From assembly GCA_944360115.1 (NCBI GenBank), contig CALVTH010000001.1, positions 6,579-70,578 on the forward strand: DNA of 64,000 nucleotides. The letters are read 5' to 3'. Both the position numbers and the translations under genes were made by a program. Below are positions 3,637 to 20,315 of this stretch, in pieces. The notes beneath the pieces are model-generated. The model was not told the origin of the DNA and ran no database searches. It was given only the letters and a program-made list of their open reading frames with translations. This DNA is from an uncultured Clostridia bacterium. GTDB lineage: Bacteria; Bacillota; Clostridia; Christensenellales; CAG-917. Every line of letters starts with the position of its first letter. The first letter of the stretch is position 1.

Positions 3637-4328
3637 CGGAAGAGATAATGCGAGTGTGCGGTCTGACCGCCGACGAAGTGTGCGAAAGACTCTCGCCCTT
3701 TGCGGGGCAGGGGGTGGACTTCTCGGTGGAAGAGCTGTGTCTCGACGCCCGCATAACAATGAAGAGCGACCTCGACAAAAAGCGTTTCGACGCCGTGAAA
3801 AGCCGTGCGTACAACGCGCTTGCCGAGGAGATATATTCGGCGGACGACCGCAGTCTGCACGACCTTGCGGCGTATCTGCTCAAAATCAACGGCAGGACTC
3901 TTGCCGTCGCCGAAAGCCTGACGGGCGGCGAGATCTGCTCGCGCCTGACCTCGGTGGCGGGCATAAGCGAGAATTTCTTCGAGGGCATAGTGTGCTACAA
4001 CCGCGCGTCCAAGATGAACCGCCTGCGCGTGCCAAAGGCGTTGCTCGGAGCATACGGCGCGGTGAGTCGTGAGACGGCGTATGCAATGGTGCGCGGACTG
4101 CTGGAGCCGCCCGTCGACATCGGGCTTGCCACCACGGGGCTTGCTGGACCCGCGGGCGACGAAGGGAAGCCCGTCGGACTGGTGTATATCGGCGTGGGCG
4201 CGGGCGACTTCATAACGGTGTTCGAGCGGCACCTTTCGGGCGACAGGAACACTGTGAGGGCGGCGGCGGCGAACCTCGCGCTGTTCTATCTGGTGCGCTA
4301 TCTCAAAGGCGACATTCTGAGACTATAG
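3633..4328 (+). CDS. cinA: CinA-family protein containing only the C-terminal PncC-type nicotinamide-nucleotide amidase domain
   Basis: It contains 'TLAVAESLTGGEICSRLTSVAGISENFFEGIVCYNRASK' and 'GLATTGLAGPAG'. It sits immediately upstream of recA, as in Firmicutes. Confidence 0.8.
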   Translation: MTEEIMRVCGLTADEVCERLSPFAGQGVDFSVEELCLDARITMKSDLDKKRFDAVKSRAYNALAEEIYSADDRSLHDLAAYLLKINGRTLAVAESLTGGEICSRLTSVAGISENFFEGIVCYNRASKMNRLRVPKALLGAYGAVSRETAYAMVRGLLEPPVDIGLATTGLAGPAGDEGKPVGLVYIGVGAGDFITVFERHLSGDRNTVRAAAANLALFYLVRYLKGDILRL

Positions 4329-16387: not shown

Positions 16388-17186
16388 AAGCCGGTTCGCC
16401 GCATTATTCGAAGAGCGGCTGAAAGAGACGCTGAAACGCGGCGCGACGGGCGGAGTGCTTGACGAGGCCGAATTCTACGCCTGTTTCGGCGGCGGCAAAC
16501 GCGTGCGTCCGCACCTCGTGCGTATGGGCGCTGAGGCGGCGGGCGGCGAAATGCCCCTCGACGAAGTGCTCGAACTTGCCGCGGCGGTGGAACTGGTGCA
16601 CAGTTATTCGCTGGTGCACGACGACCTCCCCGCAATGGACAACGACGATTACAGGCGCGGCAGACCCACCGTGCACAGACAATTCGGAGAGGCGAACGCC
16701 ATTCTGGCGGGAGACGCGCTGCTCACGCTTGCGGGAGTCGTGCTCGCGGAAGGGGCGGCTAAATACGGCGACAGATTCGCGCGCGCGGCAACTTTCATTA
16801 TGCGCGGCGCGTACGCAATGGCGGCGGGACAGGCAGAGGATTTGCGCGGTGCGAAAACCGAAGAGGAGTTTCTGTCGATGTACGCCCTGAAGACGGGCGC
16901 GCTCATACGCGCGGCGTTTCTTGCGGGCGCAACCGTCGCGGGCGGCAACCGCGAGTGCATGGAGAGGGCGGAAGAGTACGCCGACGCGCTCGGGCTTGCC
17001 TTCCAGCTTGCCGACGACCTTCTCGACCTCGGCGAACAGAATTCCGTGGCGGCGGTCGCGGGCGAGGGCAGAGTGCGTGAACTGCTTGCGGAGAGCACGG
17101 ACAGGGCGGTGACCGCGGCGCGCGGGCTGGCGTGCGGCGACGCGCTTGCCGATTTCGCGCTTGCGCTGGCAAGGCGAAAGAAATAA
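16374..17186 (+). CDS. ispA: Polyprenyl (farnesyl/geranylgeranyl) diphosphate synthase
   Basis: It has the first Asp-rich motif '[20 protein letters not shown]' and the second 'FQLADDLLD'. The start is TTG, with gaggag 7 nt upstream. It follows xseB, as in B. subtilis. Confidence 0.85.
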
Positions 17187-17216
17187 CCGCGCGACAAGTC
17201 AATTTTTGTAAATCGG

Positions 17217-17245
17217 TTGCCAAAAGCAAAAGCGTTTGATATATT
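17217..17245 (+). promoter_or_regulatory. Candidate promoter for the tRNA-Cys/tRNA-Leu pair
   Basis: TTGCCA (17217-17222), a 17-nt spacer, then TATATT (17240-17245). Confidence 0.4.
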
Positions 17246-17283
17246 GTTATAGCGCAGTCGGGAGACGACCCCGAGTATGACGC

Positions 17284-17358
17284 GGCACCATAGCCAAGTG
17301 GTAAGGCAAGGGTCTGCAAAACCCTGATTCTCCGGTTCAAATCCGGATGGTGCCTCCA
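17284..17358 (+). tRNA. tRNA-Cys (anticodon GCA), CCA encoded
   Basis: Hand-folded cloverleaf: acceptor ggcacca/tggtgcc, anticodon arm agggt-ctGCAaa-accct, T arm tccgg-ttcaaat-ccgga, ending tcca. Confidence 0.9.
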
Positions 17359-17363
17359 AAAAG

Positions 17364-17390
17364 GGCGGTATCCTGTGATACCGCCTTTTT
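17364..17390 (+). terminator. Hairpin plus T-run between the two tRNAs
   Basis: ggcggtatc-ctgt-gataccgcc followed by ttttt. Confidence 0.55.
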
Positions 17391-17394
17391 GATT

Positions 17395-17480
17395 GCCGGT
17401 GTGGCGAAATGGCAGACGCATGGGACTTAAAATCCCAAGGTGGTGACACCGTGTGGGTTCGACCCCCACCACCGGCACCA
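17395..17480 (+). tRNA. tRNA-Leu (anticodon TAA), long variable arm, CCA encoded
   Basis: Acceptor gccggtg/caccggc, anticodon arm tggga-ctTAAaa-tccca, 15-nt variable arm, T arm gtggg-ttcgacc-cccac, ending acca. Confidence 0.9.
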
Positions 17481-17863
17481 GCGAGGCAAGAACGCTTTGC
17501 AAAAGATGTTCTTGCGAGCGACAGTAGGTGGACTTTGCCTGTACAAAGTCCACCGGCACCAAACCGAGGATAAGGGCGCATCTTGCGCCCTTTCTTCGTG
17601 TCGTGGACTTCGGTTACATACTACCGCGGTATGCGCCCTCGTCCCCGCACTCGTAAGGACGCAATCTGCAACCCTTCTGCTCGGTTTGGGCGCGCAGACT
17701 GCAAGTAACCCCCGCGGGATTTTCCCTGCGGGGAATTGTGTTGTTATGCGCTGTAAGGTGGCGGGGGTCGAACGGGCGGAAAAGCAAACAGTCCATAAGA
17801 ACTGTTTGCCCGCCCCGGCGTGATAGCGCGAGCAAAGAGGGAAGTGCGCGACGGATGTCAGCC
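17460..17863 (+). repeat. Copy 1 of a 404-bp direct repeat; it begins inside tRNA-Leu (last 21 nt)
   Basis: It matches 17903-18306 at an offset of 443 bp. I found one mismatch by eye (g 17854 vs a 18297). Overlapping ORF translations on both strands are identical between the copies. Confidence 0.95.
17572..17597 (+). terminator. Terminator-like hairpin downstream of tRNA-Leu (duplicated at 18015-18040)
   Basis: aagggcgca-tct-tgcgccctt followed by tcttcg, which is a weak U-tract. Confidence 0.45.
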
Positions 17864-17902
17864 CCAAGCGGAGCGTGGTAAAATCACATAGCGAGTGCGG
17901 AG

Positions 17903-18306
17903 CGACCCCCACCACCGGCACCAGCGAGGCAAGAACGCTTTGCAAAAGATGTTCTTGCGAGCGACAGTAGGTGGACTTTGCCTGTACAAAGTCCACCGGC
18001 ACCAAACCGAGGATAAGGGCGCATCTTGCGCCCTTTCTTCGTGTCGTGGACTTCGGTTACATACTACCGCGGTATGCGCCCTCGTCCCCGCACTCGTAAG
18101 GACGCAATCTGCAACCCTTCTGCTCGGTTTGGGCGCGCAGACTGCAAGTAACCCCCGCGGGATTTTCCCTGCGGGGAATTGTGTTGTTATGCGCTGTAAG
18201 GTGGCGGGGGTCGAACGGGCGGAAAAGCAAACAGTCCATAAGAACTGTTTGCCCGCCCCGGCGTGATAGCGCGAGCAAAGAGGGAAGTGCGCGACGAATG
18301 TCAGCC
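17903..18306 (+). repeat. Copy 2 of the 404-bp direct repeat
   Basis: See copy 1. It is preceded by a 39-bp filler (17864-17902) and abuts the 3' end of maa. Confidence 0.95.
18220..18252 (-). terminator. Probable terminator of maa (lies inside repeat copy 2; its twin lies in copy 1)
   Basis: On the - strand, gcaaacagt-tcttatgg-actgtttgc is followed by ttttcc. It is nested in an outer gggcgg/ccgccc helix. Confidence 0.5.
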
Positions 18307-18333
18307 ACGAGTCGGTCGGGGTGCATGTGCGTT

Positions 18334-18933
18334 TCAGTATTCGCCGTCGTAGTACGGGTAGGTGTGGCGGTCGGCTTCGGTGATTTCACGCAGGACGCGA
18401 CAGGGCACTCCCACAGCCACGACATTTGCGGGGATGTCTTTCGTCACCACGCTTCCCGCACCGATGACGGAATTGTCGCCGATTGTTACCCCCGCAAGCA
18501 CGGTTGCGCCCACGCCTATCCATACATTGTTGCCCACCGTAACGGGTTTTGATATTTCGGTTCCTTCGGCGCGCATTTGCGGGTCTATTGCGTGCTCCGC
18601 CGTTGTAATTGTGCAATTGGGCGCGATAAAAACATTGTCGCCGAAAGTGACCTTTGCGCCGTCCTGCACTATGAAATTGTGATTGGCGTAAAAGCGGCTG
18701 CCCACTTCTATGTTATATCCGAAATCGCACCAGAACGGTGGCACGATGATGACCTCTTCTCCCATTTTTCCCAGCAAAGAAGAGAGTATTTCGCGTTGCT
18801 CTTCGGTGTCGTTGGGTGATAGTGCGTTGTAGCGGTAGCACTTTTCTTTGCCTTTTCTTATCTCGGCTTCGTAGGCGGGATTGTAACTCCCTTTGAAAAA
18901 GCAGTTGAGCGGCACGACGGGTCTTTTTTCCAT
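18334..18933 (-). CDS. maa: Maltose/galactoside O-acetyltransferase (hexapeptide-repeat family)
   Basis: It has the N-terminal Mac domain 'YNALSPNDTEEQREILSSLLG' and left-handed beta-helix repeats 'VWIGVGATVLAGVTIGDNSVIGAGSVVTKDIP'. Confidence 0.85.
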   Translation of the reverse strand: MEKRPVVPLNCFFKGSYNPAYEAEIRKGKEKCYRYNALSPNDTEEQREILSSLLGKMGEEVIIVPPFWCDFGYNIEVGSRFYANHNFIVQDGAKVTFGDNVFIAPNCTITTAEHAIDPQMRAEGTEISKPVTVGNNVWIGVGATVLAGVTIGDNSVIGAGSVVTKDIPANVVAVGVPCRVLREITEADRHTYPYYDGEY

Positions 18934-19160
18934 ATCGGTTCCTCCGAGTTTGATTGTAGCAGAAAACGCGGGGCAGTCAATACGGCGGCAATCCCTGCGG
19001 GAGCGAAAATCGCGGGAAACACGACGATTTGTATCCTGTATCCGCCGCCTTTGTGCAGGTATGTGCGTGCACAGCGGGCGCGCCTCGAGCGTGCACGCCC
19101 GCTTTAATTAAGATTTTACACGCGCCCGCGAAAATATTTGAAAAAAGTTTGCGTAAACTA

Positions 19161-19189
19161 TTGACATTTGGCAGACGGAAAAATATACT
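19161..19189 (+). promoter_or_regulatory. Sigma-A promoter of the hrcA-dnaK operon
   Basis: TTGACA (19161-19166), a 17-nt spacer, then TATACT (19184-19189), immediately followed by CIRCE. Confidence 0.7.
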
Positions 19190-19190
19190 G

Positions 19191-19217
19191 TTAGCAGTCA
19201 AGTGTTGAGAGTGCTAG
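19191..19217 (+). promoter_or_regulatory. CIRCE operator (HrcA binding site)
   Basis: TTAGCAGTC-N9-GAGTGCTAG compared with the consensus TTAGCACTC-N9-GAGTGCTAA. It lies just upstream of hrcA. Confidence 0.9.
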
Positions 19218-19253
19218 CAACCGCAAAACGGGCACGGGCACTCGGAGGCGGAG

Positions 19254-20315
19254 ATGAGCAAGGAGCTGAGCGAAAGAAAAAGAAGGATTGTGCGAGCGCT
19301 TGTCGAGACATACATCGCGACGGGGCAGCCCGTCTCAAGCGCCGACATTCAGTCGCGTTATCTTCCCGAAGTCAGTTCGGCAACCATCCGTGCGGAACTC
19401 AGCGCGCTCGAAGCGCTCGGCTACATAGCGCAGCCGCACACTTCGGCGGGACGAGTGCCTCTCAAGGCGGCGTACAAGTTGTATGTGGGCGACCTTGACG
19501 CGGAGACCGAGGGCGGCGCTCTCACCGACGCGGAGACGGCGTTTATCAGAAGCCGTTTCGAGGAAAGGCTGGACGAAGTGGGCGACCTCAGCAAGAGGGC
19601 GGCGCGCATAATCAGCGATGTGACCAACTACACTTCCTTTTTCGTCAGCAGTCATTCTTCGCCCGTCATCGAGGAGATAAAGCTGGTGCCGCTCAAAGGC
19701 GGGAAGGCGCTGGTTCTCATCGTCACCGACGCGGGTATCATCGCCGACAAGACCATAGATGTCGACTGCGACCTCAAGCGCGAATATGTGGAATCGGCGT
19801 CGGAGGTGCTCAACAAGGTGTTCTGCGGAAGGAGCGCGGACGAACTTGCGGGCGTTGACGCCGACGCGGAAATAGCCGAGCAAATCGGGGATTTCCGCGA
19901 TATATTCGACACGGTGCTGGCAATCATACGCAGTTATGTTGCCGAACATTCCGACGACCTCGCGGTGGAAGGCGCGCTCAAGATGCTCGATTATCCCGAA
20001 TACGATGTGGCGGACGCAAAGAATTTCCTTTCCGTCATTTCCGACCGCGGCAGCATGAGCGAATTGCTCGAGGACGCCGAGGACAGCATCGAGTTTTCGG
20101 TGCGTATCGGCAAGGAGGACAGCGGCGTGGACAAATGCGCCATCATCACGGCGTCGTACAAAGTCGGCGACGAGGTGGTGGGCAGAGCGGGCGTCATCGG
20201 CCCCGAAAGAATGGATTACAAGAAGGTCATCGGCGTGCTGGATTATATGAAAAAGACGCTGAGCACGGTGCTCGGCACGGACGACGACAGAAAGGACGAC
20301 AGCGATGAAAAATAA
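19254..20315 (+). CDS. hrcA: Heat-inducible transcription repressor HrcA
   Basis: It has the N-terminal winged helix 'LSERKRRIVRALVETYIATGQPVSSADI' and 'GRAGVIGPERMDY'. It is the first gene of hrcA-grpE-dnaK-dnaJ. Confidence 0.9.
   Translation: MSKELSERKRRIVRALVETYIATGQPVSSADIQSRYLPEVSSATIRAELSALEALGYIAQPHTSAGRVPLKAAYKLYVGDLDAETEGGALTDAETAFIRSRFEERLDEVGDLSKRAARIISDVTNYTSFFVSSHSSPVIEEIKLVPLKGGKALVLIVTDAGIIADKTIDVDCDLKREYVESASEVLNKVFCGRSADELAGVDADAEIAEQIGDFRDIFDTVLAIIRSYVAEHSDDLAVEGALKMLDYPEYDVADAKNFLSVISDRGSMSELLEDAEDSIEFSVRIGKEDSGVDKCAIITASYKVGDEVVGRAGVIGPERMDYKKVIGVLDYMKKTLSTVLGTDDDRKDDSDEK

Follow-up and report, generated by a model that had tools for sequence, protein, structure and literature searches.

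Why does the trailer of a tRNA-Leu(UAA) gene in an uncultured Clostridia bacterium carry almost two copies of a non-coding unit that opens with the 3' end of that same tRNA? The window analysed here, i.e., a 64-kb stretch of one metagenomic contig, had been annotated from its letters. This first-pass annotation described two 404-bp copies joined by a 39-bp filler, and proposed the scars of a tRNA-targeting integrating element, a duplicated structured RNA gene or an assembly artefact. Taken as a whole, that interpretation was partly supported by the present analysis.

The repeat at 17460-18306 was confirmed as a real 443-bp repeat with one mismatch. Tandem Repeats Finder reported a single array (period 443, 1.9 copies, 99% matches, 0 indels), and a separate repeat search and BLAST gave the same result. 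As annotated, the sole difference between 17460-17863 and 17903-18306 is 17854 G / 18297 A, and both copies open with the last 21 nt of tRNA-Leu, CGACCCCCACCACCGGCACCA, at 17460 and 17903. This 21-nt sequence occurs exactly twice in the 64 kb, with a chance expectation of ~0.01. The unit folded far more stably than its shuffled versions (z = -6.8 for the + and -8.7 for the - strand), and the hairpins originally listed were present in the minimum-energy fold. It contains no credible ORF: those of 192 and 127 aa that run across it give junk, Arg/Cys-rich translations, and served solely as search bait because gene callers sometimes call them.

Could an assembler have wrongly doubled a single unit? 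The 404-bp repeat exceeds the short-read length, one scaffold of the same locus (L002) is interrupted by a gap of 100 N precisely where the tRNA meets the unit, and a short contig (L092) looks chimeric through the conserved module described below. Arrays of this kind are also spots where metagenome assemblies break or turn chimeric. However, three independent assemblies from different samples (L002, L004 and L005) repeated the two-copy layout together with the copy-specific G/A difference, while other assemblies had one or at least three copies of the module, each with its own variants. Moreover, assemblers usually collapse repeats rather than create them. We consider an artefact very improbable.

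Layout of the Locus

The features of the window at this locus are as follows.

17217-17245, + strand: promoter-like site (consensus scan), TTGCCA-17 nt-TATATT with TG, preceding the tRNA-Cys/tRNA-Leu unit and the sole strong sigma-70-like site 5' of both tRNAs
17284-17358, + strand: tRNA-Cys(GCA) (ARAGORN; Rfam tRNA, 67 bits)
17359-17390, + strand: terminator-like hairpin in the tRNA-Cys/tRNA-Leu gap (inverted repeat; reported on the - strand)
17395-17480, + strand: tRNA-Leu(UAA) (ARAGORN, Rfam); its last 21 nt (17460-17480, T-loop C56 through CCA) form the first "core" copy
17481-17561, + strand: cassette c1, 81 nt, with a hairpin (17486-17515) and a perfect 11-6-11 palindrome (17527-17554); its 3' terminus (17550-17561) equals 12 nt of the tRNA 3' end
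17562-17704, + strand: species-specific spacer, with a terminator-like hairpin T1 (17572-17597) and a long-range helix (17559-17576 with 17672-17689)
17705-17756, + strand: terminator T2 (stem 17710-17733), counterpart of the single terminator "S" found 3' of the tRNA in relatives
17757-17923, + strand: module R, complete copy (covariance model R1, 190.8 bits; alignments, pair counts, fold)
17757-17773: 5' arm of R, antisense to tRNA positions 53-69
17774-17815: helix P2 of R
17816-17832: conserved box of R, CGGCGTGATAGCGCGAG, with small hairpins 3' of it
17887-17902: conserved box of R, CATAGCGAGTGCGGAG
17903-17923: 3' terminus of R, the 21-nt tRNA-Leu 3' end
17924-18199, + strand: second c1, spacer and T2, identical to 17481-17756
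18200-18333, + strand: module R, distal defective copy, equal to the first copy through 18306 except for 18297 A
18334-18933, - strand: hexapeptide-repeat acetyltransferase gene, bounding the array

The 39-bp "filler" (17864-17902) is a segment of the unit that is missing from the incomplete second copy, not a mere joiner, and CATAGCGAGTGCGGAG, the motif conserved best in the element as a whole, lies in it. What was taken for a "decayed tRNA 3' half" consists of the 3' portion of R, which is conserved, and an undamaged 21-nt tRNA end directly behind it. Of the tRNA end, 12 nt and not 18 recur in the inner "second terminus" (17549-17561), and cassette c1, to which this terminus belongs, is dispensable, being missing from the sister species and from unit B of one strain of the window's species (L001). 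No counterpart of the spacer was seen beyond the window's species, and no relative of the unit part 17481-17756 was found outside that species. The second allele of T2 is a textbook terminator, CCCCGCGGATTTCTCCGCGGGGTTTTT. The distal R copy lacks both the 3' conserved box and the tRNA end, and its last segment (18307-18333) bears only a faint likeness to R positions 108-128.

The Conserved Element Is a Structured Module

What is conserved is the ~167-nt module R (17757-17923), not the 404-bp copy; the module crosses the "filler" and the start of the presumed second copy. Of the explanations offered at first, a structured RNA gene thus came closest to the evidence, although the boundaries proposed for it (17598-17863) were wrong. 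In the predicted structure, a closing helix (P1) is formed by the 5' arm, antisense to the T-arm/acceptor 3' strand, and the copied tRNA end, leaving the NCCA-containing tail free. P1 encloses P2, which is a long hairpin in two parts, as well as smaller hairpins and two single-stranded boxes that do not vary. The loop GGA of a small hairpin was not kept across all types of R.

The compensatory changes sought in relatives were present in the R helices. In 17 sequences, 97.4% of the 578 cells paired and 8 pairs were altered on both sides, this covariation representing few independent lineages. None of 500 shuffles matched the observed percentage paired, the number of double changes or the covariation score, and slid controls gave 34-52% paired. 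P1 changes together with the tRNA (GGGGGUCG/CGACCCCC to GGGAAUCG/CGAUUCCC), so that its changes are coupled to tRNA identity. P2 exists in two versions, each fully compensated, the compensations deriving from two related sequences (L104 and L117). Folded alone, R gave z = -4.8. The helices contained 16 G-U against 3 A-C appositions, favouring the tRNA strand; this excess carries some bias from prediction of the structure on the + strand, and since the helices are Watson-Crick, DNA hairpins would give the same pattern. A terminator on the tRNA strand lies 3' of each R unit. No convincing promoter was found ahead of R, which in the window is separated from the tRNA by T1 and T2, both terminator-like hairpins.

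An Rfam search of 16500-19500 of the window returned only the two tRNAs at E ≤ 5. No tRNA or tmRNA fold was found in R by ARAGORN and Rfam, which recognised only the genuine tRNAs, and the position of the T loop in R reads GAGCGA, not GTTCGA. We also considered and rejected a tmRNA, a permuted tRNA and a minus-strand tRNA-like fold, whose stems fail to form. An integron attC-like site was rejected too: the arm GTCGAAC is near the inverse core site, but its partner on the 3' side reads GAGCGAC instead of GTTCGAC, and an intI gene is absent.

R Follows Three Different tRNA Genes

In related uncultured Clostridia, R-like modules occur 3' of tRNA-Leu(UAA) (the window's species and a sister species, L117, whose IspA is 66% identical), of tRNA-Gly(CCC) (L104, L108, L112 and L113) and of tRNA-Glu(CUC) (L096 and L107). 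In the window and in each of these seven loci the order was tRNA, terminator hairpin and R, all on the same strand. Every non-terminal R ended in exactly the last 21 nt of the local tRNA, i.e., tRNA-Leu in the window and L117, tRNA-Gly in L104, L108, L112 and L113, and tRNA-Glu in L107. This end was lost in terminal copies (L096, the distal copies of L112 and L113, and copy 2 of the window). At the orthologous locus of the sister species we observed the simplest form, i.e., tRNA, terminator, R, 21-nt tRNA end and then the same terminator; the element is therefore older than the split between the two species.

The interiors of R at Leu, Gly and Glu loci were 77-86% identical, for contigs of the same metagenome series that are not tied to one genome. 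A search of the 64-kb window with model R1 found this locus alone. An IspA search of representative genomes, among which the window's species was absent, gave a best match of 54% identity (L012), a sequence that has tRNA-Gly and tRNA-Cys and is without tRNA-Leu and without R. The interior of R looks mosaic, with P2 appearing to track the genome and the middle tracking the locus.

Some candidate loci were discarded. Nine bait matches (P0006, P0007 and P0009-P0015) were rejected as evidence of R, the bait having matched only through antisense translation of tRNA-Gly; L109-L111 are regarded as being without R for the same reason, and model R1 agrees. In a metagenome scan with CATAGCGAGTGCGGAGCG, 12 of 14 matches were due to chance, in coding DNA. 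The contig L092 might have been taken for a fusion, by T-loop recombination, of R with a foreign tRNA end. It is a hybrid whose crossover lies inside the conserved P2 region, and therefore reflects homologous recombination or an assembly chimera and is not evidence for T-loop recombination.

It might be argued that all this is neutral junk, i.e., that a slippage-prone, hairpin-rich tRNA trailer duplicates and decays without product or function, R surviving merely by hitch-hiking beside an essential tRNA. The composition and copy number of the units do vary freely among strains, the distal copies are eroded in all cases, and the E. coli repeats discussed below, where they lie in tRNA operons, are without known function after 45 years (PMC8144298). 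However, the R helices have been preserved through compensatory changes, and the two unpaired boxes are invariant across tRNA-Leu, tRNA-Gly and tRNA-Glu loci and between species with IspA 66% identical, a distance over which the spacers around R became unalignable. On balance a purely neutral reading appears unlikely.

The Duplication Is Local and Varies among Strains

Using the acetyltransferase gene (18334-18933) as an anchor, the same locus was retrieved from other assemblies. Variation in copy number, which had been sought in relatives, was indeed seen, with one to at least three R copies per locus depending on the strain: one unit in L003 and L008, 1.9 units in the window, L002, L004 and L005, and at least three R copies in L001 and L007. 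The units of L001 are rearranged, and all of their junctions lie directly after ...CACCGGCACCA.

Direct repeats of the 3' portion of a tRNA around a non-coding insert are reminiscent of CIMEs and other tRNA integration scars, which are left by integrases that target tRNA 3' ends, and for which tandem accretion is known. The region could be the footprint of a small non-autonomous integrative element (CIME-like or satellite) that depends on a T-loop-specific tyrosine integrase acting in trans from another place in the genome; attL/attR cores would then account for the 21-nt repeats, and repeated integration for the array. Repeats of a tRNA 3' end that start within the T loop are what a T-loop-type integrase would produce, and every unit junction falls directly after CCA. 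In addition, in L003 one complete 443-bp unit separates the tRNA from a second tRNA end, behind which comes the ancestral terminator, and at the tRNA-Gly locus the first unit varies among strains in a manner resembling an exchanged cassette.

However, as noted originally for this region, recombinases are absent: in gene tables and Pfam annotations of the flanks (read for L001-L003, L096, L104, L107, L108, L112, L113 and L117) there was no integrase, transposase or reverse transcriptase within ~4-6 kb. A tblastn search of the 64-kb window with one tyrosine integrase, a weak test with a single query, gave no match. The duplicated block is not confined to the attB/attP identity segment inside the tRNA gene. 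In the simpler relatives the direct repeat reaches 50-77 nt beyond the tRNA end, into the terminator belonging to that locus, and the repeats of 71 nt (L117), 98 nt (L104) and whole 219-nt units (L108) all include the locus-specific trailer. Because the duplicated block contains each locus's own terminator, the duplication was made locally, rather than brought in on an attP site. Unlike the space between repeats in CIMEs, that at R loci is occupied by a conserved, covarying structured module, whose 5' arm covaries with the tRNA-derived end and which is old and orthologous across two species. Nothing similar was present in phage, plasmid or viral collections: a BLAST search with the unit in phages and plasmids gave no phage match and one marginal 41-bp match in a Burkholderia record (E 9e-3), taken as chance, and the sole match in viral contigs scanned with three R motifs, in an actinophage gene (L011), was also chance. 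The idea of integration scars was not supported, and we regard an integrative origin as quite improbable.

The 2 x 404-bp repeat would instead be a recent, strain-polymorphic expansion of an array, probably through unequal recombination or slippage between repeated blocks of tRNA end plus trailer, the distal R copy being the older, 3'-eroded one.

R Resembles the tRNA-Linked Repeats of E. coli

The tRNA-linked repeats (TLRs) have been reported in E. coli since 1978 (Egan and Landy, 1978; Rudd, 1999, both as cited in PMC8144298). There are 22 of them at ten loci, with 1-5 per locus, and their last 18-19 bp equal the 3' end of the upstream tRNA or rRNA gene (PMC8144298). When we rechecked the tyrT/tyrV array, it comprised 178 bp x 3.1, each unit ending AATCCTTCCCCCACCACCA. 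Like TLRs, which include the tyrT/tyrV repeats and RtT/RttR RNA (Rfam RF00391), R lies directly 3' of a tRNA gene in the same orientation, ends in the ~20 terminal nt of that tRNA, CCA included, is present in one to a few tandem copies per locus, and has related units at the loci of different tRNAs, each with the local tRNA end. In the Rfam consensus of RtT, as in R, a 5' arm pairs with the tRNA-derived 3' end to form a closing helix, and the CCA tail stays unpaired.

Nevertheless, searches in both directions revealed no sequence homology. RtT (RF00391) had no match at E ≤ 5 in 16500-19500 of the window, whereas the same search found four copies (133-138 bits) in the E. coli tyrT locus, and model R1 had no match in the latter. 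R is also longer (~167 against 130 nt) with a different interior, copies 21 nt of the tRNA (from C56) rather than 18-19, and occurs in uncultured Clostridia rather than Enterobacteria. The last copy in its arrays is an eroded R, but the tyrT array finishes on the tRNA-derived terminus.

A further parallel in layout is provided by RrA, RrB and RrF, the TLRs of E. coli rrnA, rrnB and rrnD, which are flanked by two terminators, produced by read-through and processed (PMC8144298). As with R, the stable-RNA operon ends in two terminators that enclose the element, which copies the 3' end of the upstream gene, a proposed processing signal (PMC8144298); the layout of the sister-species locus (tRNA, terminator, R plus tRNA end, same terminator) is exactly theirs. 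They differ in lying 3' of 5S rRNA and in binding Hfq and CsrA, via GGA motifs, and their transcription and processing have been demonstrated (PMC8144298).

We therefore think it probable (roughly 0.7) that the region is a short TLR array of R modules in the trailer of the tRNA-Cys/tRNA-Leu(UAA) unit that underwent recent local expansion. By analogy with the E. coli TLRs, R would be transcribed by read-through past the tRNA terminator, excised from the precursor by the tRNA 3'-end maturation enzymes, and released as a discrete small RNA. Excision by these enzymes is suggested because R has the same 3' end as the tRNA, followed by the same terminator. The analogy covers form better than any role that R may have, because E. 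coli TLRs are without an established function.

The origin of TLRs, and the function of most of them, have remained unexplained in E. coli since 1978, and the descriptions that we found in the open literature searched are all from E. coli and its relatives in the Enterobacteriales. [quoted passage not shown] This suggests that such a design is general, either as a solution or as a by-product of the processing or recombination of stable-RNA operons. The Clostridia system offers natural variation from one to three or more copies, exchangeable sub-cassettes, a sister species that holds the orthologous single-unit form, and a module more strongly structured than RtT, which together could open the old TLR question to comparative genomics and metatranscriptomics.

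A more speculative proposal, to which we attach little likelihood, is that TLR-type elements are a widespread class that colonises tRNA loci by a structure- or RNA-guided process and arose at least twice, in Enterobacteria and in Clostridia. The 5' arm, antisense to the T arm of the local tRNA, would act as a guide pairing with the tRNA gene or transcript, and the tRNA 3' end and terminator would be copied during insertion, e.g., by template switching onto the tRNA precursor. The tRNA-matched arms, the fixed boundary in the T loop and the mosaic interior of R are compatible with such colonisation without demonstrating it.

In E. coli, the glyW-cysT-leuZ tRNA operon, whose last gene encodes tRNA-Leu(UAA), does yield a functional RNA from the 3' trailer of its transcript: this RNA, 3'ETS-leuZ, sponges the sRNAs RyhB and RybB. 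It differs from R in being short, unstructured, unrepeated and without a copy of the tRNA end. The gene order Cys, Leu(UAA) is shared between the window and glyW-cysT-leuZ, the source of the 3'ETS-leuZ mentioned in PMC8144298.

A tandem duplication that begins within tRNA-Leu

The repeat starts inside the second of two adjacent tRNA genes.

Features of the tRNA locus in the window
17284-17358, + strand: tRNA-Cys(GCA) (ARAGORN, Rfam)
17395-17480, + strand: tRNA-Leu(UAA) (ARAGORN, Rfam)
17481-17561 and again 17924-18004: cassette c1, 81 nt, the 3' end of which is 12 nt of the tRNA end

Tandem Repeats Finder reported a single array at 17460-18306, with a period of 443, 1.9 copies, 99% matches and 0 indels. 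Between the two 404-bp stretches there is one difference, 17854 G / 18297 A. The 21-mer CGACCCCCACCACCGGCACCA, the stretch of tRNA-Leu that begins at C56 in the T loop and ends in CCA, occurs twice in the 64 kb, against ~0.01 occurrences expected by chance. The first-pass annotation had thus described the duplication correctly. The 39 bp that it placed between the copies as a "filler" are also present, but they do not form a separate element, being the part of the 443-bp unit that is missing from the incomplete copy 2. The unit was far more folded than shuffled sequence on both strands (z = -6.8 and -8.7), its ORFs were junk, and an Rfam search at the locus returned the two tRNAs and nothing else.

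A terminator-like hairpin lies right behind tRNA-Cys (17359-17394, 4 nt before the start of tRNA-Leu), and recurs slightly further from tRNA-Leu in the sister species (L117, 3354-3391). Lacking its own promoter, tRNA-Leu must depend on read-through. In a more distant relative (L012) this position holds tRNA-Gly and tRNA-Cys, and no tRNA-Leu.

A ~167-nt module behind three types of tRNA gene

The repeat unit had no match in phages, and a single marginal 41-bp match in plasmids (a Burkholderia record), which we took as chance. Since gene callers sometimes annotate such ORFs, the spurious ORFs of the unit were used as queries against the protein collection, together with one metagenome motif scan. 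These searches yielded seven loci from other organisms or genomic places (L092, L096, L104, L107, L108, L112 and L113), which have in common with the window only the last ~167 nt of the unit, 17757-17923, here termed module R. The limits that the first-pass annotation gave its candidate RNA (17598-17863) therefore have to be redrawn, because the conserved part runs through the "filler" and the start of "copy 2".

At each of these loci the layout, on the tRNA strand throughout, is a tRNA gene, a terminator hairpin (S) and then R. The final 21 nt of each non-terminal R are exactly those of the local tRNA, after which the local terminator follows again; the terminal R of an array is always defective.

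R-bearing loci outside the window's species and its sister
tRNA-Gly(CCC) upstream of R: L104, L108, L112, L113
tRNA-Glu(CUC) upstream of R: L096, L107
21-nt end CGATTCCCTTCATTCGCTCCA: L104
21-nt end CGATTCCCATCATTCGCTCCA: L108, L112, L113
21-nt end CGATTCCCCATGGAGGTACCA: L107
Terminal R cut after ~26 nt: L104
Terminal R cut after ~38 nt: L108
Terminal R with diverged 3' half: L112, L113
Terminal R with decayed tRNA end: L096, L107

With tRNA-Leu included, R is linked to three types of tRNA, and in each case its end and arm match the tRNA. In the window's distal copy, identity ends at 18306, and the following 27 nt resemble R faintly. A covariance model of R (R1) found no further R in the window, and none in ~300 kb of other loci.

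In L092 (776-1163) the first R combines a 5' part of the tRNA-Gly type with a 3' part of the tRNA-Glu type. This hybrid joins the ABC-transporter side of the tRNA-Gly locus to the PAP2 side of the tRNA-Glu locus, and is either a product of recombination between paralogous R copies or an assembly chimera formed through a shared ~60-nt stretch. In L109 (3330-3665) and L110, both on the minus strand of the loci and from a low-GC Firmicute, tRNA-Gly(CCC) and a terminator are followed by ~1.5 copies of a different unit of ~190 nt. At its end this unit reads GCGAGTG-TTCCCGTCATTCGCATAC, in which a tRNA-Gly 3' end is present in degenerate form, and the 3' half of the terminator comes next; the unit was not matched by R1, and looks like another family resembling the tRNA-linked repeats (TLRs) of E. 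coli.

Anatomy and predicted fold of R

The anatomy of R was derived from three alignments (A1, A2 and A4).

Parts of R, 5' to 3', in window coordinates
17757-17773: 5' arm GGTGGCGGGGGTCGAAC, antisense to tRNA positions ~53-69
17774-17815: bipartite hairpin P2
Invariant box: CGGCGTGATAGC(R)CGAG
Between the two boxes: two or three small hairpins
17887-17902: second box CATAGCGAGTGCGGAG, shared by most copies, with variants in L108, L112 and L117
17903-17923: tRNA-derived end

The 5' arm pairs with the tRNA-derived end to form the closing helix P1, and changes along with that end: in P1, Leu loci have GGGGGUCG/CGACCCCC, and Gly and Glu loci have GGGAAUCG/CGAUUCCC. The last 5-12 nt of R, CCA included, stay unpaired. 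P2 exists in two versions, GGGCGG...GCAAACAGU/ACUGUUUGC...CCGCCC and GCCGCG...GAAAACAGCC/GGCUGUUUUU...AGCGGC, both fully compensated. Across 17 sequences, 97.4% of the 578 cells in the helices were standard pairs and eight pairs had changed on both sides; none of 500 shuffles came up to the real alignment in percentage paired, double-change counts or covariation score, and controls with partners slid by 1-3 columns gave 34-52% paired. Few independent lineages lie behind this covariation: L104 and L117 supply the P2 compensations, and changes in P1 track tRNA identity. Alone, R folds with P1 closed (z = -4.8; z = -3.3 for the L117 copy). The helices contain 16 G-U against 3 A-C, an excess that favours an RNA read on the tRNA strand, although the count is biased in that the structure was predicted on that strand.

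The window R has the same P2 type as the Gly and Glu copies of the same metagenome series (e.g., L107 and L108), and a different P2 type is found in L117 and L104; the middle segment of R is common to the two tRNA-Leu orthologues, in the window and L117. This apparently mosaic interior suggests exchange between copies at different tRNA loci, and would fit gene conversion between paralogous copies.

Orthologous persistence and local origin of the duplication

The sister-species locus, L117, was found via IspA homologues (66% identical), and has the gene order of the window (nusB-xseA-xseB-ispA ... hrcA-grpE-dnaK). Here tRNA-Cys and tRNA-Leu(UAA) are followed by a 50-nt terminator S with a 10-nt linker, R (128 bits), the 21-nt tRNA end, S again and an acetyltransferase remnant. 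The latter is the 3' part of the gene (3766-3900), with hrcA directly next. L117 represents the simplest form of the element: its direct repeat, 71 nt and 99% identical, combines the 21-nt tRNA end with the terminator of the locus itself. In a contig of the window's species (L003), the flank behind the second tRNA end is the orthologue of the L117 S. The presence of R at this locus therefore predates the split of the two species, and its structure has been kept since then; the spacers around it were not kept.

Integrase, transposase and reverse transcriptase genes were absent within ~4-6 kb of the R-bearing loci for which flanks were read, the neighbours being housekeeping genes (ispA, hrcA-dnaK, ABC transporter, EF-G, pilins, PAP2/GDPD). 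A tblastn search of the whole window with one tyrosine integrase, a weak test with a single query, gave no match, and ARAGORN detected no tRNA or tmRNA in R. An imported integrative element, bringing the tRNA end on its attP site, is made unlikely by the locus-specific trailer sequence that the duplicated block includes in L117, L104 (98 nt) and L108 (whole 219-nt units); because of this trailer, the duplication was made locally. The array of the window most likely grew to its 2 x 404-bp form recently, when repeated blocks underwent unequal recombination or slippage, with the distal copy the older, eroded one.

Copy number varies among strains

An exact match to the flanking acetyltransferase gene (18334-18933, minus strand) served as anchor to retrieve ten further contigs of the window's species, which came from different samples. 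They varied in the spacer that separates ispA from this gene.

Arrangements among same-species contigs
L003, L008: a single full unit followed by a second tRNA end, which is mutated to CATCA, and by a plain terminator
L002, L004, L005: window arrangement, with the copy-specific G/A difference
L007: at least 3 R copies (a cut first unit, one full unit, a truncated one)
L001: three units of unlike make-up (222, 362 and 380 nt), all unit junctions directly after ...CACCGGCACCA

Since the same arrangement, with its G/A difference, recurs in L002, L004 and L005, some strains do have the two-copy structure; copy number is polymorphic, and the region is difficult for assemblers. In L002, a 100-N run exactly where tRNA-Leu meets the first unit (~295-394 nt beyond the ispA stop codon), after which the tRNA 3' half is repeated, is a scaffolding artefact caused by the repeat.

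In the window's species an extra 224 nt separate tRNA and terminator, consisting of c1 (17481-17561) and a spacer with its own terminator, T1; which added pieces each unit carries differs among strains (L001). The cassette c1 is a miniature of the R design, holding a perfect 11-6-11 palindrome (GGTGGACTTTG CCTGTA CAAAGTCCACC) with a 3' arm that overlaps the tRNA-derived bases, and is absent from one L001 unit and from the sister species.

R and the tRNA-linked repeats of E. coli

In E. coli K-12, 22 TLRs are spread over ten loci, each of which has one to five; a function is known only for three copies behind 5S rRNA, and the repeated 3' end has been proposed as a processing signal (Stenum et al., 2021; PMC8144298). 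We checked that K-12 tyrT and tyrV are followed by 3.1 copies of a 178-bp unit, each ending in AATCCTTCCCCCACCACCA; one such CCA is exactly where the annotated RttR RNA ends, and the Rfam RtT model (RF00391) matches these units at 133-138 bits. The RtT consensus has a closing helix, GgGaaGGAU/AUCCuuCcC, that pairs a 5' arm with the tRNA-derived end and leaves a free ccaCCACCA tail, the same design as P1 of R. However, the two are unrelated in sequence: the RtT model had no match in 16500-19500 of the window at E <= 5, nor R1 at the E. coli locus. R also differs in its longer, more elaborately folded interior, in its copied end (21 nt, against 18-19 nt in E. coli TLRs) and in its phylum. Since R combines an RtT-like design with no sequence relation, it appears to share the architecture of E. 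coli TLRs as a new, non-homologous family of that kind. The feature is real, and is a sequence-unrelated variant, in another phylum, of a long-known and still unexplained class rather than a categorically new type of element.

By analogy with E. coli, transcription of R would come from read-through at the terminator behind the tRNA. Since R is followed by the same end and terminator as the tRNA, the machinery that matures tRNA 3' ends would release it, and P1 would stabilise it.

The E. coli TLRs RrA/B/F bind CsrA (PMC8144298). The 17854 G / 18297 A difference lies in the loop of a small GAC-GGAU-GUC hairpin (17850-17859, 18293-18302), the GGA of which resembles a CsrA binding site; the defective distal copy reads GAA, and the loop GGA is missing from Glu-type and L104 copies. 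A promoter-like site within R (17855-17884: ATGTCA, 18 nt, TAAAAT, with TG) is oriented towards the copied tRNA end. The Glu and L108 types have an AT-rich -10-like box at this place, and L104 lacks it.
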